The translations under genes were made by a program, and so were the position numbers. DNA of 48,882 bases from a virus (Duplodnaviria; Caudoviricetes), in IMG/VR virus record IMGVR_UViG_3300011335_000824, positions 1-48,882 of that record; one strand, 5' to 3'. The notes beneath the pieces are model-generated. The model worked only from the letters and a program-made list of their open reading frames with translations, was not told the DNA's origin and did not search any database. Below are positions 289 to 40,671 of this stretch, in pieces (position 1 is the stretch's first letter; every line of letters starts with the position of its first letter).

Positions 289-326
289 AATTTTGTTATA
301 GCGACAATCCGCAAGTTAGCAGCAAC

Positions 327-641
327 CTAAGACAACGACTTCCAACCTTCTTCATTTTTCGGTTTAGGTAATGCTTCAAATTCTTCTTTTGTGTAAATCT
401 TGTAACCATCAGACTGCAACAACTCAAATCTTTTAGCTGCATATTTCATCGCATTATTGTAAAATGCCATTGCTGCTTTTGGGTCATTGACTGTTGGTTT
501 ACATATATCAGATAACGTATCAATGTTATCCAATAACGACCATAATTGTTCAGCAATTTCTCTCATAGATAGGCTGCTGCTAACAGGGGTTTTGTGAATA
601 TTGCCCTCGCCTTGATTAAACTTTTGTGGTTCTTTTGACAT
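327..641 (-). CDS. Hypothetical protein, cassette 1 cargo
   Basis: 104 aa ORF; its ATG lies in the loop of attC-like site 578-711. Confidence 0.7.
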   Translation of the reverse strand: MSKEPQKFNQGEGNIHKTPVSSSLSMREIAEQLWSLLDNIDTLSDICKPTVNDPKAAMAFYNNAMKYAAKRFELLQSDGYKIYTKEEFEALPKPKNEEGWKSLS

Positions 642-711
642 TTGTATTTCAATTTAACTGTTGTGCAATGTTTTAACAAGGGCAACATCACAAAGCCCCG
701 ATACGTTAGCA
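578..711 (+). repeat. attC-like inverted repeat 1
   Basis: TGCTAAC-A-GGGGTTTTGTGAATATTGCCCT (586-607) ... AGGGCAACATCACAAAGCCCC (679-699)-GATAC-GTTAGCA; one extra base in the left arm. Confidence 0.8.
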
Positions 712-726
712 AACATTAAAACGATT

Positions 727-1075
727 TGCTAACAAGGCATAAAACGTAATATTTAAAAATTTATATTGCATCTAACTCGCCTTCTAATCCCTCAATGAAC
801 TTTTCCAAATAAGAGATAGCGGAATGTTTAATGGCTTCAATCAAAATCCAATTTCCTGACTCTATTGCTTCTCCTATGCTAAACACACAATTATCAACGG
901 CACTTTCCCCCGATTTCTCAAACTTGATAAATTGATTTTTGTTTAGCTTTTCAAAATTGCCTTTTTGTATTTTAGCCACCTTTATCTTTTGTAAAAGTTC
1001 CGCTACTCTTTGTGCTTGTTCTATTTTCATATCGTTAAATTTTTAAATACTACGTTTATGCCATATACGTTATAC
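727..1075 (+). repeat. attC-like inverted repeat 2, with a whole ORF in its loop
   Basis: TGCTAAC-AA-GGCATAAAACGTAATATTTAAAAATTTA (736-763) ... TAAATTTTTAAATACTACGTTTATGCC (1036-1062)-ATATAC-GTTATAC; one extra base and one mismatch. Confidence 0.75.
761..1030 (-). CDS. Hypothetical protein, cassette 2 cargo
   Basis: 89 aa ORF lying between the two arms of attC-like repeat 2. Confidence 0.7.
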   Translation of the reverse strand: MKIEQAQRVAELLQKIKVAKIQKGNFEKLNKNQFIKFEKSGESAVDNCVFSIGEAIESGNWILIEAIKHSAISYLEKFIEGLEGELDAI

Positions 1076-1300
1076 GAAAGGTGGTTTTGGAAACTCTCTC
1101 CAATACAATACTTTTGGGTAACAACTCCACCTAAATTGTAAATAACCTTTATCGGTGGTATAACTTGCCTCTGCCATTCCTTGCTCTGTCCATATTAAAA
1201 TACTTCTGCTGTCATTAGGTGGAACATCTTCGTTAAACCACCCATCGCATAACAGAACATTGGCGTTATTGCTTTGTTCTTCGTTTGATACTTTTGTCAT
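1070..1300 (-). CDS. Hypothetical protein resembling DUF551-type phage proteins, cassette 3 cargo
   Basis: 76 aa; W...PP...ILIW...VLYWREFPKPP pattern; its stop codon is the TTA of the core site. Confidence 0.65.
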   Translation of the reverse strand: MTKVSNEEQSNNANVLLCDGWFNEDVPPNDSRSILIWTEQGMAEASYTTDKGYLQFRWSCYPKVLYWREFPKPPFV

Positions 1301-1366
1301 AATATTAAAGTTTATCGTTTCTAATTAAATTTTGTGGCAACAACGCCAATCTGCAAAACGTTAGGT
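1247..1366 (+). repeat. attC-like inverted repeat 3
   Basis: GCATAAC-AGAAC-ATTGGCGTTATTGC (1259-1272) ... GCAACAACGCCAAT (1337-1350)-CTGCAAAAC-GTTAGGT; 13/14 bp arm match. Confidence 0.8.
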
Positions 1367-1372
1367 GCAATG

Positions 1373-1555
1373 CTATGACGGCTCACATTTAGCATCAGGC
1401 ATTTGATTAAACACCTCTGCAATAGTTTCTTTTGTAAAACCATCAATCTCTAATGCTAATTGAATTGCATCTCTAATGGCATAAGGATAATGCACATCTT
1501 TTAAGTCAATTGTAACTTCGGGTTGTTGTTCGTTTCTTTTTACTACTATTTTCAT
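1373..1555 (-). CDS. Hypothetical protein, cassette 4 cargo (alternative GTG start at 1594)
   Basis: ORF track 1373..1594; the ATG at 1555 (MKIVVKR...) has an AAATAAA context. Confidence 0.65.
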   Translation of the reverse strand: MKIVVKRNEQQPEVTIDLKDVHYPYAIRDAIQLALEIDGFTKETIAEVFNQMPDAKCEPS

Positions 1556-1631
1556 TTTATTTGAATTTGTGAGAAGCACTGCACCTAACAGCACATAGGC
1601 AATAGTTGCCAGAAACTTCTCGGTTAATAAT

Positions 1632-1673
1632 TTAATTTATCATAGTCAACCATTCTACTGCTGTTTGTTTCAT
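1632..1673 (-). pseudogene. Truncated MKQTAVEWL-family remnant (MKQTAVEWLTMIN*)
   Basis: 27 bp identical to 85-111, fused to the truncated left arm of the fourth attC-like site. Confidence 0.55.
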
Positions 1674-2642: not shown

Positions 2643-3013
2643 TAATCCAACCAATTATTCTCTATTAATGTTCCTATAAACATTTTTAGTTGTGCAATTT
2701 CAGACTTGTTAAGTATGTTAGATATCTCATCTAATGCTTCTTTTTCACCTTTAAATAATCCCTTTATCCAAGTAACATTGTCCCAATAGTCTGACTCTTT
2801 TGTAAGTTTATTTGTGTATTTAATGTCAACAGTATCCTTAAAAAAGATTTCATTGTTGTAATCTGAATACATTCGAGATGCTTCAAACATGCAATCGTCT
2901 AGTTCAAGAAGACATTGTTGAGTGTATATTAAATCTTGTGGTTCTGTTTGTGGTTGTTCTTCTTCTTTAACATACCAAGTTCCATTTATTTGTATTCTGT
3001 CTTCTGTTTTCAT
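2639..3013 (-). CDS. Hypothetical protein
   Basis: 124 aa ORF, ATGA-coupled to the upstream gene. Confidence 0.75.
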   Translation of the reverse strand: MKTEDRIQINGTWYVKEEEQPQTEPQDLIYTQQCLLELDDCMFEASRMYSDYNNEIFFKDTVDIKYTNKLTKESDYWDNVTWIKGLFKGEKEALDEISNILNKSEIAQLKMFIGTLIENNWLDY

Positions 3014-3219
3014 AGTTTTTCTATTTCTTTTTTAACTTCATTCCAATAATCAAATCTTTTAGTTTCCATGTACACATTATCACTTCCATTCCAATTGTAA
3101 CATTCCTTGATAATTTCATCAACTGCTATTGTAGCAGCAGCCTTACCTCCATCTGTTGTCAATAGACATTCATTTGAAAACTTATCAACTAACTCTTTTG
3201 CTTTTTCCTTTGCTTTCAT
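3010..3219 (-). CDS. MTPKEKA-family small protein, copy 4
   Basis: MKAKEKAKELV...EVKKEIEKL. Confidence 0.8.
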   Translation of the reverse strand: MKAKEKAKELVDKFSNECLLTTDGGKAAATIAVDEIIKECYNWNGSDNVYMETKRFDYWNEVKKEIEKL

Positions 3220-3416
3220 AGTTTTTCTATTTCTTGTTTAACTTCAAACCAATATTCATATCTTATCATTCCTATCCTTAAGTCTTGACTGTATAGTATT
3301 TTTTTAATTTCATCCACCATAACTAAAGCACATTGTTTAGCTTCATTATAATCTAAACTTGTAACTGTAGTTTGGTAGTTAACAATTAACTCAGATGCCT
3401 TTTCTCTTGGTGTCAT
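3216..3416 (-). CDS. MTPKEKA-family small protein, copy 3
   Basis: MTPREKASEL...EVKQEIEKL. Confidence 0.8.
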   Translation of the reverse strand: MTPREKASELIVNYQTTVTSLDYNEAKQCALVMVDEIKKILYSQDLRIGMIRYEYWFEVKQEIEKL

Positions 3417-3637
3417 AGTTTTTCTATTTCTTGTTTAACTTCTTCCCAAAATATTATTTCATTACTATTATCTTCTATATGTCTATTGTGAAACTTAATC
3501 ATTAAAGACAATATCTCATTACAAGATATTAAAGCACATTGTTTAGATTGTTCTTTATAACCTCTATAAGTGTCATCAAAGTTAAACTCATCTGCATATT
3601 TATCAAATAACTCTTTTGCTTTTTCTTTTGGTGTCAT
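3413..3637 (-). CDS. MTPKEKA-family small protein, copy 2
   Basis: MTPKEKAKEL...EVKQEIEKL. Confidence 0.8.
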   Translation of the reverse strand: MTPKEKAKELFDKYADEFNFDDTYRGYKEQSKQCALISCNEILSLMIKFHNRHIEDNSNEIIFWEEVKQEIEKL

Positions 3638-4410
3638 AGTTTTTCTATTTCTTGTTTAACTTCAATCCAATAACTTTTAGCAGCTACATTAGGTGTCATG
3701 AAATTGTACTGTGTTATAATTTCATCAACTGCTATTGTAGCAGCAGCCTTACCTCCATCTGTTGTCAATGAGATCGCAAATGAATATGTGTCAACTAACT
3801 CTTTTGCTTTTTCTTTTGGTGTCATTTGTTTATGTTTGTTTAACGCATCTTTTAATAATTCAATGTCAAATACTATTGGACCATACTCTTCATTAGAGCA
3901 GTCAAATATTACTTTGTTGTCTTCAAGTTTAATGTAAGCTGACCTATGCCATTTTGCATCTCCTTTAAATACCATTGTTGATTTTACATCCTCATTGTGC
4001 TCATAAGCTCCATCAGGCCCAATTTGAAAGTCATCTGAAATGTATGGCTCATTGTCTAAACCATCATTTAATGTTACATCCCAATCTTTTAATTCATCTT
4101 CTTCAGGTAATGGTCCGCAGTCACAGTAAGATGTGTGACCACAGTAACATTTGGTTACCATTTTATCTTCTTCAGATGTAATTATTCTTGCAAATTTAGG
4201 AAAGTGCTCAGGTCCGTTGTTGTCAAAATCAATGAATATTTCAAAGTCTACTTCCAATCCTTCATTAGAATCATACAATGCTAATCCATTTAATCTACCA
4301 TTGTCTACTAATGGCAGTGCATTTTGATTTTTCTTTACAATGTTTTCTCCAACTACTTCATCATAAATTACAATCCATCCTTGTGTTGTTTTATGCAATA
4401 TTCCTTTCAT
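3634..4410 (-). CDS. Mosaic hypothetical protein with a C-terminal MTPKEKA module (copy 1)
   Basis: 258 aa; internal CYCGHTSYCDC motif; the last ~63 aa are paralogous to the three downstream ORFs. Confidence 0.75.
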   Translation of the reverse strand: MKGILHKTTQGWIVIYDEVVGENIVKKNQNALPLVDNGRLNGLALYDSNEGLEVDFEIFIDFDNNGPEHFPKFARIITSEEDKMVTKCYCGHTSYCDCGPLPEEDELKDWDVTLNDGLDNEPYISDDFQIGPDGAYEHNEDVKSTMVFKGDAKWHRSAYIKLEDNKVIFDCSNEEYGPIVFDIELLKDALNKHKQMTPKEKAKELVDTYSFAISLTTDGGKAAATIAVDEIITQYNFMTPNVAAKSYWIEVKQEIEKL

Positions 4411-4430
4411 ATTATAACTTTTATTTAATG

Positions 4431-4462
4431 TGAATATATGATAGTTAACTTTGCAAGCCTAA
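4431..4462 (-). promoter_or_regulatory. Bacteroidota-type -33/-7 promoter
   Basis: TTAGGCTTGCAAA...CATATATTCA. Confidence 0.65.
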
Positions 4463-5548: not shown

Positions 5549-5570
5549 AACCTTTATTTTTTTATTTACT

Positions 5571-5602
5571 TAAATATATGTTGAAAAACTTTGACTGCCT
5601 AA
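5571..5602 (-). promoter_or_regulatory. Bacteroidota-type -33/-7 promoter
   Basis: TTAGGCAGTCAAA...AACATATATTTA upstream of the ligase. Confidence 0.7.
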
Positions 5603-6987: not shown

Positions 6988-7009
6988 AACCTTTATTTTT
7001 TTATTTACT

Positions 7010-7041
7010 TAAATATATGTTTAAAGACTTTGAAAGCCTAA
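7010..7041 (-). promoter_or_regulatory. Bacteroidota-type -33/-7 promoter
   Basis: TTAGGCTTTCAAA...AACATATATTTA. Confidence 0.7.
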
Positions 7042-9125: not shown

Positions 9126-9157
9126 TAAATATATGTTAAGGGATTTTGTAAGCCAAA
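9126..9157 (-). promoter_or_regulatory. Bacteroidota-type -33/-7 promoter
   Basis: TTTGGCTTACAAAATCCCTTAACATATATTTA (TTTG-N20-TATATTTA). Confidence 0.75.
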
Positions 9158-31187: not shown

Positions 31188-32632
31188 TAATATATAATTT
31201 TATGATTTAATACTCTTTTTTCTACATTTTTGGTGTTGATAAGTTCAAATTTTGCTCTTGGCTTCCAAGTTGAAAACAAAATGTCTAAATATTTAATGAT
31301 TCTTTGACCCATTTTTTCTCCTGTTAATCCTGCTTCATCACTTAAAGCCCATTGTCTACCTTTCAATCCTCTTGCTTTACGTTCTTCTTTACTTAAGTCA
31401 TAAACTGCTTTAATTTGTAATGCTGCATTTTCAGCTGTGCACCTGTCGTCCCAAATGTATGGAGTAATAGGAGAACCTTGAATTGATCTGCTAGTTGGAA
31501 ATACTGGGAAGGCCCATTCTCCATGTTCTTTAACTGTGCCATTGTGGTTGGAAGGAAAATCAGCGTCCAATTCCATCCATTTTTTATCTTTTACAAAACG
31601 CATTTGATCTTGCATTCCTCCTGTTACATTTGCTACAATTACATTTCCACATAAAATGGCTTCTGTTAATGCCAATCCCCAACCTTCATTGCTTGTTAGC
31701 AATATTTGAGCGTCTGTTAAGTTGTATAAATAGCTCATTTGTTGAGGATTTAACATTCCTGGTGAAAACAAAATGTTGTATTTTTCATCATCACTAAACA
31801 AGTATTCTTTTACTGCTGCTAAATCTGTTCCATTGTCATCACATATTTGAGTGTGTAACATTATAGCACAACGTTTTGCTTTTTCTTTAGGCAATTCATC
31901 AATGAACAATTTATATGCTAGTAAAGTGTCTGGAATTTGTTTTCTGCGAATGTTTCTTGAGTTGAAAAATAAAACAAAGTCATATTCTTTTCCTTTAAAC
32001 ATTTCATTTTTAAATTTAACATATTCAGGATTTTTCTTTTCCTCATTGGAAAAAGGTCTGAATAAATCATGATTTAATCCATGAGGCACATATTCAATTA
32101 TTTTATCTTTTACTTTATCTCCTAACACTAACTTGTTGATGTTTACAGTTTGTTTAGAAATGCCTAACAATGCATCACATGCTTCATAGTATGGTCTGTT
32201 GTACATTGGAGCTGGATAGTTGTCCCAAATGTTTAAGTAAACAATGGGAATTTTTCTTCTAATTTCATTTTCAATTTGAAACAGCCAAATGAAATATCTT
32301 GGATCAGTGATTAAAAATACAGCGTCAGGTTTTTCAATTTTAATAAGTTGTCTAATTAAATTAGCGTCACCATATCCATCTACTGGATAAATGGCAATTG
32401 AACTGTCTGTCAATCCTGTGTTAAGATTAGTGTCTTGAGAAATGTCTAATTTTTTACCCTTGTCTGGATGGTTTAGTGCTCCTGCAACTTGTATCCAGTT
32501 GAAGTGTTGGGCTGTGTTAAGAACCATTTCTCGAGCAACAGTTGCTACTCCTGAGTGTACTCGAATGTCGTCACAAATGAGCATGATTTTTTTCCTCTCA
32601 TTTTGAGGCAAATAGGCAAAACTTGAATTCAT
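31187..32632 (-). CDS. Glycosyltransferase family 4 (GT-B)
   Basis: HSGV, VPHG, RNIRRK, NEGWGLALTEA. Confidence 0.9.
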   Translation of the reverse strand: MNSSFAYLPQNERKKIMLICDDIRVHSGVATVAREMVLNTAQHFNWIQVAGALNHPDKGKKLDISQDTNLNTGLTDSSIAIYPVDGYGDANLIRQLIKIEKPDAVFLITDPRYFIWLFQIENEIRRKIPIVYLNIWDNYPAPMYNRPYYEACDALLGISKQTVNINKLVLGDKVKDKIIEYVPHGLNHDLFRPFSNEEKKNPEYVKFKNEMFKGKEYDFVLFFNSRNIRRKQIPDTLLAYKLFIDELPKEKAKRCAIMLHTQICDDNGTDLAAVKEYLFSDDEKYNILFSPGMLNPQQMSYLYNLTDAQILLTSNEGWGLALTEAILCGNVIVANVTGGMQDQMRFVKDKKWMELDADFPSNHNGTVKEHGEWAFPVFPTSRSIQGSPITPYIWDDRCTAENAALQIKAVYDLSKEERKARGLKGRQWALSDEAGLTGEKMGQRIIKYLDILFSTWKPRAKFELINTKNVEKRVLNHKIIY

Positions 32633-32648
32633 ATAACTTGTTTAGTGT

Positions 32649-32816
32649 TTATTTATTGTGATTGGTAACTTGTTTTCTAAATTCTTCTGAGTTAAGATAT
32701 AAATCCATTGCTCGATTTACAAGCTTATTTAAAGAAAATTTACGTTTAATGCATTCTATTTTAAAAGTGTCAAATATTTCTTTGTTAACTTTTACTGATG
32801 TGAGTATTTCATCCAT
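32649..32816 (-). CDS. Ribbon-helix-helix-like small regulator, 55 aa (not in ORF track)
   Basis: MDEILTSVKVNKEIFDTFKIECIKRKFSLNKLVNRAMDLYLNSEEFRKQVTNHNK*; strand-helix-helix pattern. Confidence 0.7.
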   Translation of the reverse strand: MDEILTSVKVNKEIFDTFKIECIKRKFSLNKLVNRAMDLYLNSEEFRKQVTNHNK

Positions 32817-32886
32817 AGTAGTATATATTGGTTATATATAAATATATGTATTCTACTTTAAAATCGCCTCATTGTATAAATCTTTA

Positions 32887-33690
32887 CTAAGGTTTGGTAT
32901 TCCATATTATTTTTCTTCCTTTTAAGGCTTTTCCTATGTTTTCTTTATGTTGTTTAGACATATGTTTTTTAACTCCTTTATCTTTTTTTGTCAAAAACAT
33001 TTCTAAATCAAACCTAGGAGGAAGTGGATCTGTTTTTTTTCTCCATATGTATCCTCCTGATGTTTTGGCCTTTTTGTTTATACATGAATTTACATCTAAA
33101 TTTAGTATTTTTTTAACTTCAATTCTCCCTTCCCATTCTTTAATAAAATTCCCCTGTAAATCATATTGGAGGATAGGTTTTCGTAAACTTTTACTAGTTT
33201 TTAGTATATGTTCTTTTGATTTAGGAATACCTTTACCTCTACTTACACCCATATTGCTTTTACTTTTTAATTTTTTAGTTTCCTCAGATTCAATTCTTCC
33301 CATAAGTGACATTGATTTTTTTAAACATGATTCTGTAGAATGTTTTCTTCCTTTATTTGCCTTACTTATTTTATCTTTAGTTTCTTGACTTTTATATCCT
33401 CCTTTTCCATCAATTAAATGACAAAATAATGCTTTATTCCAACCAAATTCATTTATAAATTGTTGTTTATAAAATATTTCTTTTTCATCTAATTGTTCAA
33501 CTAAACATTCTTCTATAACTTCAGACATATGTTTTTCCCAACTGTATTTTTTAAGTGAATTATAAAGTTTAGGTTGATCTTTACATTTTACTTTTGAATA
33601 ATATTTCCATCTATTATCTATCTCAGTTGATTGTCCTATATAAACTTTACCACTAGGGCTCGTTATTTTATAAATTCCTAGATTTTTCAT
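32887..33690 (-). CDS. GIY-YIG homing endonuclease with NUMOD3 and NUMOD1-like domains
   Basis: GIYKITSPSGKVYIGQS...RW; SQETKDKIS; KPILQYDLQGNFIKEW. Confidence 0.92.
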   Translation of the reverse strand: MKNLGIYKITSPSGKVYIGQSTEIDNRWKYYSKVKCKDQPKLYNSLKKYSWEKHMSEVIEECLVEQLDEKEIFYKQQFINEFGWNKALFCHLIDGKGGYKSQETKDKISKANKGRKHSTESCLKKSMSLMGRIESEETKKLKSKSNMGVSRGKGIPKSKEHILKTSKSLRKPILQYDLQGNFIKEWEGRIEVKKILNLDVNSCINKKAKTSGGYIWRKKTDPLPPRFDLEMFLTKKDKGVKKHMSKQHKENIGKALKGRKIIWNTKP

Positions 33691-33738
33691 ATTTATGTTT
33701 TATTATAAATATTACAAAAATATAAAAAATCTATGTAA

Positions 33739-34686
33739 TTATATTCCTTCTGAACATAATGATTTTAGTTGGCGGTAAGGACAATATGCACAAGCCCATT
33801 TTGACGGTGTTGCTTGGTGACTTACAGTCTTATATGAACCATCAAGATTAAATGTTTCTTCTATAAAAGTGCCCAATGCTGTTTTGGCTTTTTTAACTTT
33901 TGTTTTGCCATTTGCAGGGTTGAACTGTTGAATGCGTTTTTGAGGAAATTCACTTTCTTCCCATATTTTTCTTTTTACTATAAAAAATTCAACATCTATG
34001 TTTTCTTCATCTACTCCAAACTGTTCACTAAAAAATGACTTGTACAACAATATTTGAAATTGTTTAACTTCATCTTTCTTTTCTTTGTCTTTCCATCCAC
34101 GAGTGCTAGTTTTTATGTCGTATATAATGAATTGATTTGTAGGTTCATGGTATAAGACTAAGTCAATAAATCCATTGAATAAAACGTTGTTATGCGTTTT
34201 ATTTGGCGCAATAACAATGGGCATTTCAATTCCTACTAAATGCCAATCTTTCAAACTAAAATATTCACTTCTCTTTTTCTTGATGAAGTCTAAAATGGCT
34301 AAACCATCATCATAGAATTCTCTCATTTCTTTTGGACTGCTGAAGTGAACATTTTTATTGTCCTTATAGCCCTTTGCATAGTTTTCTCTAAATCTTTCTT
34401 CAAAGTATTCTTCTATGTTTATAGCATCTGCCTTTACTCCACTTTCATTGTACATCACAGACAGGTAATTTTGCAGTGTTTCATGCACTGCAGTGCCAAA
34501 AGTCATGTTGATAGAAAAACTAGGTATTTTATGTCCTTCCTTATACTGTAAAGACCACTTTTTAGGGCAAGATAAAAACATTGACAGTTGTGAGTAAGAT
34601 ATGCTCTTTTGAAAAGCATAGTCTACAGCTGTTGGCTTGTATGCCTGTATTTTCTTTATGATGGAAGGAATTTTGTTTTTAGCCAT
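33739..34686 (-). CDS. PD-(D/E)XK nuclease (RecB/Cas4-like exonuclease)
   Basis: ISYS...CP, FGTAVH, E...GFIDL...DIKT, Q..LY, CAYCPY...C. Confidence 0.88.
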   Translation of the reverse strand: MAKNKIPSIIKKIQAYKPTAVDYAFQKSISYSQLSMFLSCPKKWSLQYKEGHKIPSFSINMTFGTAVHETLQNYLSVMYNESGVKADAINIEEYFEERFRENYAKGYKDNKNVHFSSPKEMREFYDDGLAILDFIKKKRSEYFSLKDWHLVGIEMPIVIAPNKTHNNVLFNGFIDLVLYHEPTNQFIIYDIKTSTRGWKDKEKKDEVKQFQILLYKSFFSEQFGVDEENIDVEFFIVKRKIWEESEFPQKRIQQFNPANGKTKVKKAKTALGTFIEETFNLDGSYKTVSHQATPSKWACAYCPYRQLKSLCSEGI

Positions 34687-34894
34687 TAGATTTTAACATT
34701 GTTTTTACTTTTTGAAGATATAAAATGGCGTCCATATGTTCTTGCAAGGCATGTTCAATAAAGTCTTCAATTGATAAGTCAACTCTGTCTAATGTTACAC
34801 CGTATTTTTTTTCTCCCATTTTAGCTCTGTCAACAAATTTTTCTACAATTGTTTGAACAATTGAATCGGGAGTGTATTCTGTGTATTTTATCAT
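34679..34894 (-). CDS. Small all-alpha protein, possibly NTP-pyrophosphatase-like
   Basis: GEKKYG...HALQEHMDAILY. Confidence 0.6.
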   Translation of the reverse strand: MIKYTEYTPDSIVQTIVEKFVDRAKMGEKKYGVTLDRVDLSIEDFIEHALQEHMDAILYLQKVKTMLKSNG

Positions 34895-35337
34895 TTAATT
34901 AATTTTTTAACTTGTTTTTCATCAACTCCCTTACTTAGCAAAACATTTTCCAGCCATTTATCATCTGTAATTTGAATGTATTCTTCTGCTTCAACTGTTG
35001 AACATTTAAAATATTCAGAAACATGCTGAAGCACTTCAGGTGGCAAGGTTTTTTTAACAGTTGACTTAATGTAAGGAGAGTAAGTGTTTTTACTTTGTGG
35101 AATCATAAAACAGTACACTTCATACAATTTTTTAGGATCTTGAATGTTTAACTTTTGAATGTAGTTGGTAATGTCAATGTACTTTGGATTCATGCTTAAA
35201 AATTTATGAATCATGTATATGTTAAACACTTTTCTTTGTTCAGGTCCAAATGTGTCCCAATTTGGCTTTGTGTCAATGATTGCTTTAAGAAAATCAAAGA
35301 TGGTAAATGTCTTTACTTTACTAGATGTTTTTGTCAT
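34891..35337 (-). CDS. Clamp loader small subunit (T4 gp62-like)
   Basis: IFDFLKAI...FNIYMIHKFLS; VSEYFKCS..EAEEY; replication-cluster context. Confidence 0.7.
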   Translation of the reverse strand: MTKTSSKVKTFTIFDFLKAIIDTKPNWDTFGPEQRKVFNIYMIHKFLSMNPKYIDITNYIQKLNIQDPKKLYEVYCFMIPQSKNTYSPYIKSTVKKTLPPEVLQHVSEYFKCSTVEAEEYIQITDDKWLENVLLSKGVDEKQVKKLIK

Positions 35338-35338
35338 A

Positions 35339-35596
35339 TTATTTTCCTAAAGTAAAACCAATGTCTTTATAATCATCTCTAATTTCTTTAGGAATCATGT
35401 CTAAAAGAATCTTGTTAGTGCTAACATTATACATAACAGGAATTGGAATTAAAGCATCCTCAGCTGTTCCTGCTAGAAATTTACTCATTTTTCTTAAAAC
35501 CGCTCCTTCAGCTAGTAGTATTGGTTTTCCATCTTCTGAAAGAATGGGAGTGGACTGAGTGATGTCCATTTTCATTTTTAATTGTTCGTTGCTCAT
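35339..35596 (-). CDS. Hypothetical protein
   Basis: 85 aa; LRKMSKFLAGT..DALIPIPV. Confidence 0.75.
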   Translation of the reverse strand: MSNEQLKMKMDITQSTPILSEDGKPILLAEGAVLRKMSKFLAGTAEDALIPIPVMYNVSTNKILLDMIPKEIRDDYKDIGFTLGK

Positions 35597-35781
35597 ATTT
35601 GTTTATTTGATTGTTTTTCTTCGATTAATTTTAATAGTGTTCTTTCTTCTTCTCTGAGTCTAGCAGCGTTTTCGTACTCCATTGCTCGTACAGCAATGTT
35701 TTTCTTTTTATTAACTTCAGCTAAACGTTGTTCTAATTCTTCTAATGTTTCCATTTTCATTTTTAATTGTTCTTGGCTCAT
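35593..35781 (-). CDS. UVR (UvrB/UvrC motif) small protein
   Basis: KNIAVRAMEYENAARLREEE. Confidence 0.75.
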   Translation of the reverse strand: MSQEQLKMKMETLEELEQRLAEVNKKKNIAVRAMEYENAARLREEERTLLKLIEEKQSNKQI

Positions 35782-35812
35782 TTTTTTTTTTGTTTATTTG
35801 ATTGTTAGTTTA

Positions 35813-36271
35813 TTATGTTAATGATAAAAATATACGTTCCTCTTTTTTAAAACACTCTCCATTTATTATCATGTCACCATTTTCATTTCTTTCATTTTCA
35901 ACAATACAATAAATCCAACGAAGTTGTTCAAGATAAGATACAACTTTAGTAATTTTACACCATTTTGGTTTAAACATATCACTAGCTGTATCAATGTCAT
36001 CCAATATTTTAAAATACTTCTCTACTATTTTATAAAGTGGTGCAACATTTATAGCTTTTCGTTTTGCCATATCTACATTATATGTATCATCATAAATTTG
36101 CTTCAATGTAGCATCATCTTCATTAGCTTGCTTTACTTTGCTTTGACAATACTTTACATAGTTTTTATTACCTTCTATACCTTCATATCCCTCAAGAATA
36201 TTTTCAATTGATAATAAAATATCTCTTAATTTATTTGCTGCGTACAGCATTTGATGTTTATTATTTTTCAT
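35813..36271 (-). CDS. Hypothetical protein
   Basis: 152 aa ORF, ATGA-coupled. Confidence 0.7.
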   Translation of the reverse strand: MKNNKHQMLYAANKLRDILLSIENILEGYEGIEGNKNYVKYCQSKVKQANEDDATLKQIYDDTYNVDMAKRKAINVAPLYKIVEKYFKILDDIDTASDMFKPKWCKITKVVSYLEQLRWIYCIVENERNENGDMIINGECFKKEERIFLSLT

Positions 36272-36975
36272 ATTTTTTTATATTCCCAAATATAATTAAG
36301 GGAAACGTATTTTCCAATTTTTAATTTATCTCTTTTTCTTGGTAAGTGTTTTTCATTTTGAACACAACATGCATTGATAGCCATGTAACTTAATCCTAAC
36401 TCAGTTGATGCTTTTTTACCTGTTTCCCATTCCTTAATTACATTACCTTTAAGATCTTTTTGTAAAATAGGTCGTCCGAAAGATTTTGATGCTGATTCAG
36501 AAAGATTTTTCTTCCATTCATTATCTTTTACATGTCCTAATTTAATTTGGCTTTTTTTCTTTTTAGTTTCTTCACTATCTTTTTTTCCTAAATGAGATAA
36601 GCTTTGTTTTAATTTAGTTTCTTTTGAAAATGTTTTACCTAAATTTGTTTTTTTGGTTTTCATTAATTTAGAAAATTCTAATTTTACAGATTCATATGTT
36701 CTACTACTAATACAATAAGATTCTGCTGTTTTCCATCTTCGTTTTCCTGTAGCCATTAACCATAAAGAATATTTTAGTTTTTCATTTTTAGGATAAATTT
36801 CAACCAATAAACGATGACATAAAAAATGTTCTCTTGCTGTTAGTTCTACTATATTTTCTTTATTGTTTGATCCACCTAAACATTTAGGTATGGCATGGTG
36901 TTTTTCTTTATAACCTTGTATTTGACGAATTTTAGCACGTTCTATTATTTGACTGTATATTCTTTGATAATCCAT
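36268..36975 (-). CDS. HNH homing endonuclease with NUMOD3 and NUMOD1-like domains
   Basis: EKHHAIPKCLGGSNNKENIVELTAREHFLCH; SKETKLKQS. Confidence 0.92.
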   Translation of the reverse strand: MDYQRIYSQIIERAKIRQIQGYKEKHHAIPKCLGGSNNKENIVELTAREHFLCHRLLVEIYPKNEKLKYSLWLMATGKRRWKTAESYCISSRTYESVKLEFSKLMKTKKTNLGKTFSKETKLKQSLSHLGKKDSEETKKKKSQIKLGHVKDNEWKKNLSESASKSFGRPILQKDLKGNVIKEWETGKKASTELGLSYMAINACCVQNEKHLPRKRDKLKIGKYVSLNYIWEYKKI

Positions 36976-37022
36976 GTTTTATTATAAATATTGTCAAAAT
37001 GGATAAGGAAACAAACGTTCAA

Positions 37023-37952
37023 TTATTTTTTAGTAGAAATGATTTCCAATACACGAGAAATAGTGCTCATAATATTTATCTCTTTGTCCAAAACAAAATG
37101 AGCGTGATACATATGTTCCTCCAAAGTACATATAATTGTACCTTCATTTTCTTTAGCATATTCATTTAATTTATTGTATAAAAATTTATATAAACTTTCA
37201 AAGTCATCTACTTCCGAATTTGCAACAATTTGCCTTATAACATTAAACGACTTAGTAGATGGTTTTTTTAATTCTTCTAGTATTTTTACTTGATAGTCAT
37301 TAGATTCATTTATTGAGTTGTCTAATGTTAAAGTTCCATCAATAGTGTACTTTTGACAGTTGTTGATGATTTTTCTAAAGTCAGGATAAAACTTGTTTAC
37401 AATAGTGACTAAATCAGGAATTTCATATTCAATGTCTTCTTTGTCTAAGATAATGCTAACATGTTGTGCCACTACTTTTTTACTTGGGGGAGACAAGTCA
37501 AATTCTTGACATCTGCTTCTTAAAGGTTCTATAAGTCGTTCTGCATAGTTTCCTGTTAAAATAAAACGAGTAGTTAAAGAATATGTTTCCATCATGTTTA
37601 ACAAAATGACTTGTCCTGCTTGTAAAATGTGAGTTGCTTCATCCAATATCACTATTTTGAGTGGTGCAAAGCTACCAGCAGCAGCAAATGCTCCTACTTT
37701 GTCTCTCATAATGTCTATGCTTCTCTCATCTGTAGCATTTATGTAAAGAAAGTCACAGTCAATGTTGTTGACTAATATTTTTGCAAGTGTTGTTTTTCCT
37801 GCGCCTGGTTTTCCTGCAAATAGGAGGTGTGGAATGTCTTGTTTGTCAATGAATTCTTGAAATTTAGCTTTCACTTCATCTTTACAAATGTATCCTTCTA
37901 AAGTGTCTGGACGATACTTTTCATTTAATATTGTGTGTAACCTTTTTGACAT
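37023..37952 (-). CDS. Clamp loader AAA+ subunit (RFC small subunit / T4 gp44-like)
   Basis: EKYRP, GKPGAGKTT, ILDEA, LRSRC. Confidence 0.95.
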   Translation of the reverse strand: MSKRLHTILNEKYRPDTLEGYICKDEVKAKFQEFIDKQDIPHLLFAGKPGAGKTTLAKILVNNIDCDFLYINATDERSIDIMRDKVGAFAAAGSFAPLKIVILDEATHILQAGQVILLNMMETYSLTTRFILTGNYAERLIEPLRSRCQEFDLSPPSKKVVAQHVSIILDKEDIEYEIPDLVTIVNKFYPDFRKIINNCQKYTIDGTLTLDNSINESNDYQVKILEELKKPSTKSFNVIRQIVANSEVDDFESLYKFLYNKLNEYAKENEGTIICTLEEHMYHAHFVLDKEINIMSTISRVLEIISTKK

Positions 37953-37961
37953 AACTTTTAT

Positions 37962-38180
37962 TTAAAAATTGTATTTCTTCTTCATTGTCTCATAAAACTC
38001 AGGACATTCAGGAGCATATTTTTTAAGCAAATTAAGATAATATTGGTGTTTAAATTTCTTATCATCTGTGCTTTCATATATAATTAAATCTCTTAATTTA
38101 GCAGCCATTTCATAACGTTCTTTTTCAACACACCAGTCTAAACGGTCTTGCATTACTTCAATGTATGCATTTTGAGTCAT
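37962..38180 (-). CDS. UVR-motif small protein
   Basis: CVEKERYEMAAKLRDLI. Confidence 0.7.
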   Translation of the reverse strand: MTQNAYIEVMQDRLDWCVEKERYEMAAKLRDLIIYESTDDKKFKHQYYLNLLKKYAPECPEFYETMKKKYNF

Positions 38181-38196
38181 AACTTTTATTTTTATT

Positions 38197-38228
38197 TAAA
38201 TATATGTTAGAGAATTTTGTAAGCCAAA
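38197..38228 (-). promoter_or_regulatory. Bacteroidota-type -33/-7 promoter
   Basis: TTTGGCTTACAAAATTCTCTAACATATATTTA. Confidence 0.75.
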
Positions 38229-38465
38229 CTAGTCTCCGTAAATGTTAAATTTTTTAGGCGGTTCAGGAGCCACAGTTTCATTTGTGATGATGTATATTTC
38301 TCCTTTTAAAGGCGACAGTTTAAAGTCATAAGCCGTTTGAGTTTTTTGATAGTATGCCTCTAATGCTTCTGTTAAAGACTTATGTATAACCTTATCATCA
38401 ATCAACTTCCAAGAATCTCCTGGTGGATAGCGTTTAGCGATTAGTGTGTAAACTTCTTGTTCCAT
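38229..38465 (-). CDS. Hypothetical protein
   Basis: 78 aa ORF directly downstream of groEL. Confidence 0.7.
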   Translation of the reverse strand: MEQEVYTLIAKRYPPGDSWKLIDDKVIHKSLTEALEAYYQKTQTAYDFKLSPLKGEIYIITNETVAPEPPKKFNIYGD

Positions 38466-38468
38466 GTT

Positions 38469-40097
38469 TTAGTACATTTGAGGTGAAGCTAATTCTTCTT
38501 TTTTGTCATTGTTTACTTCTACAATTGCTGCTTCTGTTAACAAAACTGTGCCTGCAACAGATGATGCATTTTCTAAAGCATTTCTTGTTACTTTAGTTGG
38601 ATCAATGATGCCTGCCTCTTTCATGTCTACAAATGTTTCACTTTTGATGTTGTATCCTTTCCAATTGTTTTTTCCTTCCATTTTGTTGATCAACCTGTAA
38701 CAATCTCCTTCGGTGTAGCCAGCATTTGTTAAAATTTTCATAAATGGAGCAAGACATGCTTCTTTAACAATTTTTTTACCAATGTGAATGTCTGAGTTTA
38801 AATCTTCTTTAGAAATGGTAATAGCTTCTCTAGCGTATAACAATGCAGCTCCTCCTCCTGGTACTATGCCTTCCTCAATGGCTGCTTTTGTAGCGTGTAA
38901 AGCATCATCTACTCTGTCTTTAGTTTCTTTCATTTCTAATTCACTATTTCCTCCAACATGTATAATTGCTACTCCACCTATAAACTTTGCTAAACGTTCT
39001 TGTAGTTTTTCTTTTTCAAATGGTACTGTTGACTTGTCAATTTGCATTTGCAGTTCATCAATTCTTTCTTCAATTTTTTCAACTGTTCCTTTACCATCAA
39101 CAATTGTTGTTTGGTCTTTAGTTACTGTAACCAAACGAGCACTTCCAAACCATTCCCAAGAAAACTTGTCTAACTTCATGCCTTTTTCACTGCTAAACAC
39201 TTGTCCACCTGTCATTGTGGCAATGTCTTCTAAAATGAGTTTTCTACGGTCTCCAAAGTCAGGAGCTTTTACTGCTGCCACTTTAATTGTGCCTCGAATT
39301 TTGTTTACTATAAGTGTAGATAAAGCTTCTCCATCTATGTCTTCAGCAATGATAAATAAAGATTTACCTGTTGATGAAATACTTTCTAAAATTGGCAGTA
39401 AGTCTTTTACTTGAGTAAATCGTTTGTCTGCAATTAAAATGTATGGTTCTTCTAAAGTGCAAGTCATGTCATTGTTGTTTGTGACAAAATAATGTGACTT
39501 GTATCCTCTGTCAAATTGCATTCCTTCTACTGTTTCTAAATATGTGTCTCCACTTTTAGACTCTTCAATGTGAACTACTCCTTCACGACCTACTTTTTCC
39601 ATTGCTGCTGCAATTAATTTTCCAATTTCAACATCATTGTTTGCAGAAATTGTTGCTACTTGTTCTAGTTGAGTTTCTGAAGTAATGTCTTTAGAAATGT
39701 CTTTGCGTAAAGATGTTACTACTTCTTTTACTGCAGCATCTATTCCACGTTTGATTTCTACTGCATTTGCTCCTTTGTCTAAGTAAGTTAAACCTCCATT
39801 TATAATACTTTGAGCTAGTAGAGTTGATGTGGTTGTTCCATCACCTGCATTGTTGCCTGTTTTAATGGCTGCTTGTTTAATCATTTGAGCGCCTAAATTT
39901 TCCACTTGATCTTCTAAGTCGGAAATTTGTTTAGCACAAGTAACTCCGTCTTTTGTTGACCTTACTTCACCGTACTCAGTGTAAATGACATTTCGACCAT
40001 TTGGTCCTAATGTTGAGGTAACTGCGTTGGCTACCTTGTTGATTCCACTGACAAGTTTTTTTCTTGCTTCAGAACCAAATTCAATGTTTTTGTTCAT
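38469..40097 (-). CDS. groEL: Chaperonin GroEL
   Basis: TLGPNGRNV, TKDGVT, AGDGTTT, EGMQFDRGY, KAPDFGDRRK, EEGIVPGGG. Confidence 0.98.
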   Translation of the reverse strand: MNKNIEFGSEARKKLVSGINKVANAVTSTLGPNGRNVIYTEYGEVRSTKDGVTCAKQISDLEDQVENLGAQMIKQAAIKTGNNAGDGTTTSTLLAQSIINGGLTYLDKGANAVEIKRGIDAAVKEVVTSLRKDISKDITSETQLEQVATISANNDVEIGKLIAAAMEKVGREGVVHIEESKSGDTYLETVEGMQFDRGYKSHYFVTNNNDMTCTLEEPYILIADKRFTQVKDLLPILESISSTGKSLFIIAEDIDGEALSTLIVNKIRGTIKVAAVKAPDFGDRRKLILEDIATMTGGQVFSSEKGMKLDKFSWEWFGSARLVTVTKDQTTIVDGKGTVEKIEERIDELQMQIDKSTVPFEKEKLQERLAKFIGGVAIIHVGGNSELEMKETKDRVDDALHATKAAIEEGIVPGGGAALLYAREAITISKEDLNSDIHIGKKIVKEACLAPFMKILTNAGYTEGDCYRLINKMEGKNNWKGYNIKSETFVDMKEAGIIDPTKVTRNALENASSVAGTVLLTEAAIVEVNNDKKEELASPQMY

Positions 40098-40106
40098 AAC
40101 TTTGTT

Positions 40107-40397
40107 TTAGTCGTTTATAATTGCTATTACTTGATTTTCTAATGTACCATAGTATTCTTCTCCTTCAAATTCTATTTTAGTTGGTCCCATTTGAGGTAAA
40201 ATTACCTTTTGACCTACTTTTAATGTTGAAGCTACAAATTCTCCTGTTGCACAGTGATAACCAGGACCTACAGACACAATAGTACCTGTTAGGTTCTTCT
40301 CGCGGCCGAGGTCAGGAACTATGATACTTCCATAAGTAGTTTCTTCTTGTGTTTGGGGTTTGACAATGATTGAGTTGAAAACTGCTGTTAATTTCAT
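40107..40397 (-). CDS. groES: Co-chaperonin GroES
   Basis: EETTYGSIIVPD, GTIVSVGPG, LKVGQKV; adjacent to groEL. Confidence 0.93.
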   Translation of the reverse strand: MKLTAVFNSIIVKPQTQEETTYGSIIVPDLGREKNLTGTIVSVGPGYHCATGEFVASTLKVGQKVILPQMGPTKIEFEGEEYYGTLENQVIAIIND

Positions 40398-40429
40398 ATA
40401 ACTTTTTTGGTTTATAACTTATTTTACTA

Positions 40430-40464
40430 TGATAAATATATTAAGATTCAGGTGGATAAACAAG
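40430..40464 (-). promoter_or_regulatory. Composite promoter upstream of groES
   Basis: CTTG-N20-TATATTTA overlapping ATATTTATCA. Confidence 0.55.
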
Positions 40465-40671
40465 CTTAATTTCTTCTTCTTCAACTAATTGTGCTTCTTC
40501 AATCTTTTGGCAAAAGTAATATAAACCATCTTTTTTCAACACAGTGTCAGCACAAATGTACTCCTTGTACTCCTGCACAAAATCTGCAGGAAATGTATCT
40601 TCTTTAAGAATGCGTTTAATTATGTATAAAGCATCTTCCCATTCTACTACTTGTTTGCTTATTGTAAACAT
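40441..40671 (-). CDS. Hypothetical protein
   Basis: 76 aa ORF on the coding strand. Confidence 0.7.
   Translation of the reverse strand: MFTISKQVVEWEDALYIIKRILKEDTFPADFVQEYKEYICADTVLKKDGLYYFCQKIEEAQLVEEEEIKLVYPPES

Follow-up and report, generated by a model that had tools for sequence, protein, structure and literature searches.

A candidate inside-out cassette in a phage array of attC-like sites

Can an attC-like recombination site carry a whole gene in the loop of its hairpin and still belong to a mobile cassette? The question arises near the left end of a 48.9-kb linear virus record, about 35% complete, whose full length of 48,882 nt is the window analysed here. In the available text of the cited papers, natural attC sites measure 57-141 bp (PMC5371416) and their loops 3-100 nt (PMC7439510, PMC4889954), and the reverse arrangement is represented by synthetic attC sites that can be embedded in genes (PMC7439510). 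We consider it probable that positions 706-1069 of the window form a mobile integron-style cassette built inside out, with a 29-nt mini-hairpin in the gene slot and the gene in the loop of the recombination hairpin. This reading rests on the anatomy of the site, the register it shares with its neighbours, alleles that differ at GTT cores, and recurrence of the layout with dozens of unrelated genes. The features are as follows.

315..320, + strand: head insertion site, crossover G/TT at 315/316, no hairpin upstream; alleles in records L001 and L090 and runs X11 and X10
315..704, + strand: cassette 1, ordinary body 315-584 followed by a 120-nt site to the GTT at 705
705..733, + strand: empty cassette body (mini-hairpin) of 29 nt, R' and R'' boxes, 9-bp stem, 11-nt conserved loop
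736..763, + strand: left arm of the oversized site, holding the gene's stop codon
761..1030, - strand: ORF of the cargo, encoding a small phage protein (89 aa) outside any known family
1036..1062, + strand: right arm of the oversized site, which is the A-rich leader of the - strand gene
1069..1075, + strand: R' core closing the oversized site, presumed crossover G/TT at 1069/1070; run X10 forks after 1074
1069..1359, + strand: cassette 3, body to 1253 and 106-nt site to the GTT at 1360
1360..1640, + strand: cassette 4, body 1360-1589 with ORF 1373..1555 (- strand), left arm only

The anatomy described in an earlier note on this DNA was borne out. A GTT stands at 705 and an AAC ends at 733, the core and inverse core that had been placed there with about 11 bp between them; the 9-bp stems at 705-713 and 725-733 are perfectly complementary and enclose 11 nt (714-724). 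The arms, given as 27-28 bp, are 28 nt on the left (736-763) and 27 nt on the right (1036-1062), and pair through 26 Watson-Crick pairs and one A/C mismatch of the + strand that becomes T·G on the - strand, the left arm having one extra base as a bulge. Between them lies the 89-aa ORF, whose stop codon TAA (761-763) falls in the left arm as claimed. The site, announced as about 350 bp with a gene in its loop, spans 349 bp from R'' (727) to R' (1075) with a loop of 272 nt. The anchored arm score of 49 is the best in the window on either strand; the next best is 35, and the maximum among 60 Markov shuffles of 5 kb was 30, so the arms are far above chance. Their predicted pairing probability on the - strand is 0.89, and the predicted folding energy of the site is -48.4 kcal/mol for the bottom versus -43.2 kcal/mol for the top strand. 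An inverse core AAC and a core GTT flanking an imperfect inverted repeat, as in attC sites, are present at 727-1075; a length of 57-141 bp with the gene outside is not, the site being 349 bp with its gene inside. Judging from published loop lengths, size-limited attC searches would miss such a site.

The cargo ORF is likely to be a real gene, because it is present on 29 contigs and its protein has homologues at 42-66% identity. The protein has no match in Pfam, PHROG or NCBIfam; its look-alikes in the Atlas are unnamed phage proteins, with PF26819 as the single weak lead. One apparent homologue (L003) proved spurious, a helicase match, and no contigs bearing the three distant homologues were found among metagenome or viral contigs.

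The oversized site is the second of an array of four units with cores at 315, 705, 1069 and 1360. From AAC to GTT the first site spans 120 nt, the oversized one 335 and the third 106 nt, and they share one register: in all three the spacer after AAC is 5 nt long and that before GTT 9 nt. In cassettes 1 and 3 the genes are already partly within the site: the ORFs 327..641 and 1070..1300 (both - strand) start inside the loop and extend past the inverse core into the body; the stop codon of 1070..1300 lies on the GTT core. No matching right arm was detected for cassette 4, and it has likely decayed. Our own site parser lists three attC-like sites and no integrase in the window. Directly after cassette 4 follows one of several runs of small paralogous genes (3010-3860, 81-119, 1644-1682 and 1900-1938), in which gene starts are near-identical and stop/start junctions overlap; these are likely hotspots of homologous recombination.

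The array is mobile, because sister records carry different cassettes at the GTT of 315. One (L002) has the same allele as the window, with no extra head cassette; another (L001) is 99.98% identical to the window over 4.7 kb and carries at GTTAGC (315-320) an inserted 752-bp cassette with an N6/N4 methyltransferase. In a related phage (L090) yet another cassette occupies the head site and is followed by a resident gene with its stop on the closing GTT. Contigs assembled from public runs show a branch at 320 into the methyltransferase allele (X11) and the end of a further cassette ahead of 315 (X10). Units are gained and lost at G/TT, as at attC sites, the exact base being ambiguous within the shared GTTA(GC/TA). 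Across related phages, no fewer than four different cassettes have entered at the bare GTT of the head site as the first of the array; no integrase lies next to this site, and it behaves like an attI or attG target.

For the oversized site, a junction is seen in run X10, where one unbroken contig covers 315-1074 and then continues in two ways at the GTTATA. One branch is the window's cassette 3 (depth 7.0), the other a resident flank gene (depth 6.2) that matches the flank gene of the related phage L090 at 28 of 30 letters; owing to this fork, which rests on a 71-nt contig of one run, possibly the window's source sample, the oversized site has two different right neighbours joined within GTTATA. 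Insertion at the site, excision up to it or re-insertion of the unit once excised from another place would each require the oversized site to recombine, and the junction suggests that oversized sites are really used. A joint skipping 706-1069 was absent from the contigs of runs X1, X3, X9, X10 and X11, a kind of data that cannot show absence. Runs X1 and X3 contain a second arm after the same body at 734, not assignable to the window phage.

Which enzyme might act on the array? A profile search found no PF00589 or other tyrosine recombinase gene in the window record, which is 35% complete, and none was found in its two sister records either. PF00589 was found in four of the 15 virus records that bear the motif or are sisters, among them two of the five complete genomes; in the other three complete phage genomes with the body motif no such recombinase was found. 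In genomes G003 and G005 it lies at the array head on the bottom strand, and around 33 such recombinase genes the sites fall on one strand (74 vs 9). The array-heading phage enzyme combines PF13495 and PF00589; its best-scoring models are NF040815 and TIGR02249-like ones, with scores below both cut-offs. Its alignment to XerA/XerD has no long gap and that to VchIntIA covers residues 17-172 only, from which it follows that the IntI insert is absent. This insert is said to be essential for integron function in the available text of PMC8138268, and an adjacent IntI with it, the hallmark of a complete integron, was not found in the window. Chromosomal homologues of the recombinase exist in 3 of 151 genomes at E<=1e-55; the two examined had no array within about 20 kb on either side, and GenBank phages gave no match at 1e-40. 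The earlier note's reading of a non-canonical cassette is supported, within limits: register, array alleles and the GTT junction speak for it, but with no IntI insert in the associated recombinase and a different spacer geometry, the site can be called attC-like and not a proven integron attC.

The same empty body recurs in other viruses. A first search for it gave 59 viral loci, two of them the sister records of the window. Under neutral scoring, a matching site followed downstream in 33 of 37 loci with a 29-nt body and enough flank, in 2 of 12 with a 38-nt body variant and in none of five with other bodies (five loci were too short); among shuffles, 7 of 300 reached the threshold. The 25 distinct sites from this search measure 136-1150 nt, and 21 hold a bottom-strand ORF of 48-308 aa. 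Their gaps fall on both arms (8 vs 12) and, next to the single left-arm bulge and 5/9 spacer of the window site, no conserved G bulge appears across the set. G·T pairs number 58 on the bottom and 17 on the top strand (neutral scoring); as the bottom strand is the mRNA-like strand here, this wobble bias alone cannot separate DNA from RNA folding.

A second body search, with four stem letters per side left free, reached at least 125 viral loci and at least 129 matches. Among the 129 matches listed, 76 have a site, 31 lack one on short flanks and 22 lack one despite ample flank. The 62 distinct units among them have 15 body sequences, with a body stem of 9/9 in 53 and 8/9 in nine; in these listed units the stems covary around an invariant 11-nt loop. 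Of the listed units, 11 carry an ordinary site (109-136 nt) and the other 51 a long one (183-1310 nt); an antisense ORF lies in 49 of the long sites, three of these ORFs filling less than 30% of the loop. Long and short sites have a common flank consensus and register, and many share arm families, so that they are not independent. The inside-out layout is a minority one, found in 1 of 45 units in arrays chosen by their recombinase, where a trade-off between body and loop was not significant (p = 0.13). A gene whose start lies in the loop and whose end lies in the body, presumably an intermediate on the way to an empty body and a common one, occurs at 73 of 260 sites, a sample enriched for empty bodies. 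A unit of 165 bp (L009, L026, L027, L053, L057) has an empty body, a 136-nt site, no complete ORF and four neighbour sets. In chromosomes the body motif is scarce: it was found in one of 301 genomes of the bacterial order searched, the metagenome bin of the first sighting, and the exact motif had 21 matches in the species collection, four with a valid site, all on bin contigs, one as long as a viral contig. Ordinary 81-120-nt sites of the window type occur at 9 of 17 bacterial loci, mostly with top-strand genes.

We propose that a XerA-like recombinase, supplied in trans or encoded in an unseen part of the genome, would act on the array and recombine the folded bottom strand at AAC and G/TT. 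Folding predictions give the excised single-strand circle the dumbbell form of an ordinary cassette, with R stem, unpaired spacer and L stem; in the circle of 706-1069 the mini-hairpin would cap the R end and the gene the L end. Predicted pairing in this circle is 0.99 for the R stem and 0.89 for the arms, and dumbbell folding was predicted for every circle tested, 34 of them inside-out and 34 ordinary. Because both sets fold alike, the two layouts would be the same dumbbell with its cargo in opposite loops, and either end loop could therefore carry cargo. Relative to the classical cassette direction the gene is antisense, so it runs with the phage's own operon, the replication and chaperone genes of the window being nearly all on the - strand. 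For excision from the array the 272-nt loop would have to close, which should be favoured on single-stranded DNA and rare from supercoiled duplex; loop length matters little when DNA is delivered single-stranded, according to the accessible part of PMC8946536. The cap may have arisen by collapse of the body once an antisense gene fitted in the loop, as is suggested by filled bodies of 176, 272 and 558 nt with the same two ends (including one in Polaribacter phage Danklef_1). We had also considered an 'easy in, hard out' lock by the mini-hairpin and rejected it. In the integrated form, R-box pairing of the oversized unit is predicted to be near zero, equally so in ordinary cassettes (median 0.015 in inside-out units, 34 of 36 folded; 0.002 in ordinary units, 34 of 62 folded), and is not specific to the inside-out layout.

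A bolder extension, which we regard as possible but doubtful, is that Bacteroidota phages run their own integron-like system, with a XerA-like enzyme lacking the IntI insert, a two-loop dumbbell that takes cargo of up to 1.3 kb in either loop, and bodies and sites swapped separately by crossovers at R' and R''. Such a system would explain why one standard cap sits on dozens of unrelated gene-filled sites. It would also explain a pair for which we could not account by crossover at G/TT alone: in L034/L035 versus L186, a 215-aa methyltransferase-like cargo with its arms is 95.8% identical under two caps that are six compensatory changes apart. L034 and L035 are two copies 1.9 kb apart on one contig. 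If true, this would be a route by which new cassettes are made. Five clusters in which the same short site stands under different bodies were set aside as proof of R'' crossover, as they may only reflect site families.

Three other explanations of the oversized unit were weighed against the inside-out cassette. It is unlikely, though the strongest of the three, that the unit is a frozen relic: either an ordinary site took up a gene in its loop or a deletion collapsed the body, leaving an inactive oversized site that spreads by homologous recombination between phages. The filled bodies with the same ends would allow the 29-mer to be a collapsed body, in replicating duplex DNA a long loop lowers recombination by as much as 4 logs (PMC8946536, in its accessible part), and the unit has a single upstream neighbour throughout the records seen. 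However, a relic accounts poorly for the two downstream junctions at its GTT in run X10, for near-perfect arms kept around dozens of unrelated genes, and for other long units with different neighbours at both GTT ends. Among 61 cargo clusters, 19 have several members (mostly duplicates of one contig), and in two, with cargoes of 215 aa and 63 aa, different neighbours are joined at GTT.

Improbable, too, is an element acting at the RNA level, in whose transcript the arms would bring together the leader and the 3' end of the gene and the mini-hairpin would be a processing or termination signal. The arms do coincide with leader and stop region, wobble pairs lie on the coding strand, and the 11-nt loop is invariant; yet gain and loss have their boundaries at GTT cores, promoter, terminator and Rfam scans of the stretch returned no matches, and the A-versus-G mismatch recurs (by eye, uncounted) at chromosomal same-type sites whose genes lie on the top strand. 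An RNA role could be secondary to the recombination role. Least credible of all is that the arms are the terminal inverted repeats of a gene-capturing MITE or non-autonomous IS, to which 27-28-bp inverted repeats around one ORF bear an outward resemblance. A MITE or IS with a target duplication was the outcome that the earlier note had named as fatal to its proposal, but there is no duplication beside the arms and no transposase in the window, which argues that 706-1069 is not a MITE; moreover, the mismatches are strand-biased, and arm sequences vary between units while the AAC...GTT register is constant.

Read as an inside-out cassette, the oversized unit is a variant of the attC cassette kind and not a member of the classical integrons. 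With integron attC cassettes (R''-L''-VTS-L'-R' in the available text of PMC2727003 and PMC5371416) it shares AAC/GTT cores and paired arms, and possibly the unpaired spacer and bulge. The array is further like integron cassettes in its one-orientation tandem order, gain and loss at G/TT, newest unit at the head and predicted bottom-strand preference. In contrast to them, the window unit's body is empty, the genes are antisense and the spacer is 5/9 instead of roughly symmetric 5/5-6, and the array-heading enzyme, unlike IntI, stays below the NF040815/TIGR02249 cut-offs, lacks the insert and aligns like XerA/XerD. Roughly symmetric attC spacers include 5/6; that of the VCR is 5/5 (PMC2727003, available text). 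The site, with 349 bp and a whole gene in a 272-nt loop, also differs from the attC range of 57-141 bp and 3-100 nt quoted above. As in attG insertion, according to the accessible text of 10.1101/2022.09.11.507474, the bare GTT head site fits the GWT consensus, is used repeatedly and apparently lies in the stop-codon region of a resident gene; unlike there, it is a natural phage hotspot and the enzyme is not IntI1-3.

Also close are the CALINs of virulent phages, notably Polaribacter phage P12002L (Qi et al. 2023, PMC9892861), which the array resembles in an attC-like cluster without a neighbouring integrase, methyltransferase cargo and a Bacteroidota host. Such a host is likely for the window phage, given the weak matches of its cassette genes to Flavobacterium phages and the attC-like site type. 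Set against the main text of that paper, the gene inside the loop, the empty mini-hairpin body and the natural alleles are particular to our locus. In the same main text, the bottom strand of one Polaribacter phage site is reported as a substrate that IntI1 recombined; our site parser finds same-type sites in the genome of that test. Phage P12002L (L280) has same-type sites at 32495-40552, including ones of 188, 197 and 397 nt that overlap genes, and offers a cultured, bench-accessible system for such sites. In the literature searched, as listings and the openings of abstracts with subscription papers outside, we found no description of a gene-in-loop cassette.

If the oversized site is active, the ceiling of about 140 bp does not hold for attC-type sites, and cargo may also lie within them; what recombines would be a dumbbell with two usable loops, and the strategy of cassette searches would have to change. 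Activity would further point to a family of single-strand-hairpin recombinases without the insert thought essential, and would give a testable handle on the origin of cassettes and on the shuffling of small genes and methyltransferases by phages. What the locus adds is a set of natural alleles within one phage population, among them a junction at the oversized site.

Two further observations concern the rest of the window. A conserved 47-nt intergenic repeat lies 5' of - strand genes at 2596-2642, 4416-4462, 5556-5602 and 6995-7041, with further copies near 9135 and 38206, and is likely a phage promoter. A long cluster of sugar-nucleotide, glycosyltransferase and methyltransferase-like genes, named by inspection of their translations alone, extends from 12385 to 32632 and possibly serves DNA or capsid modification.
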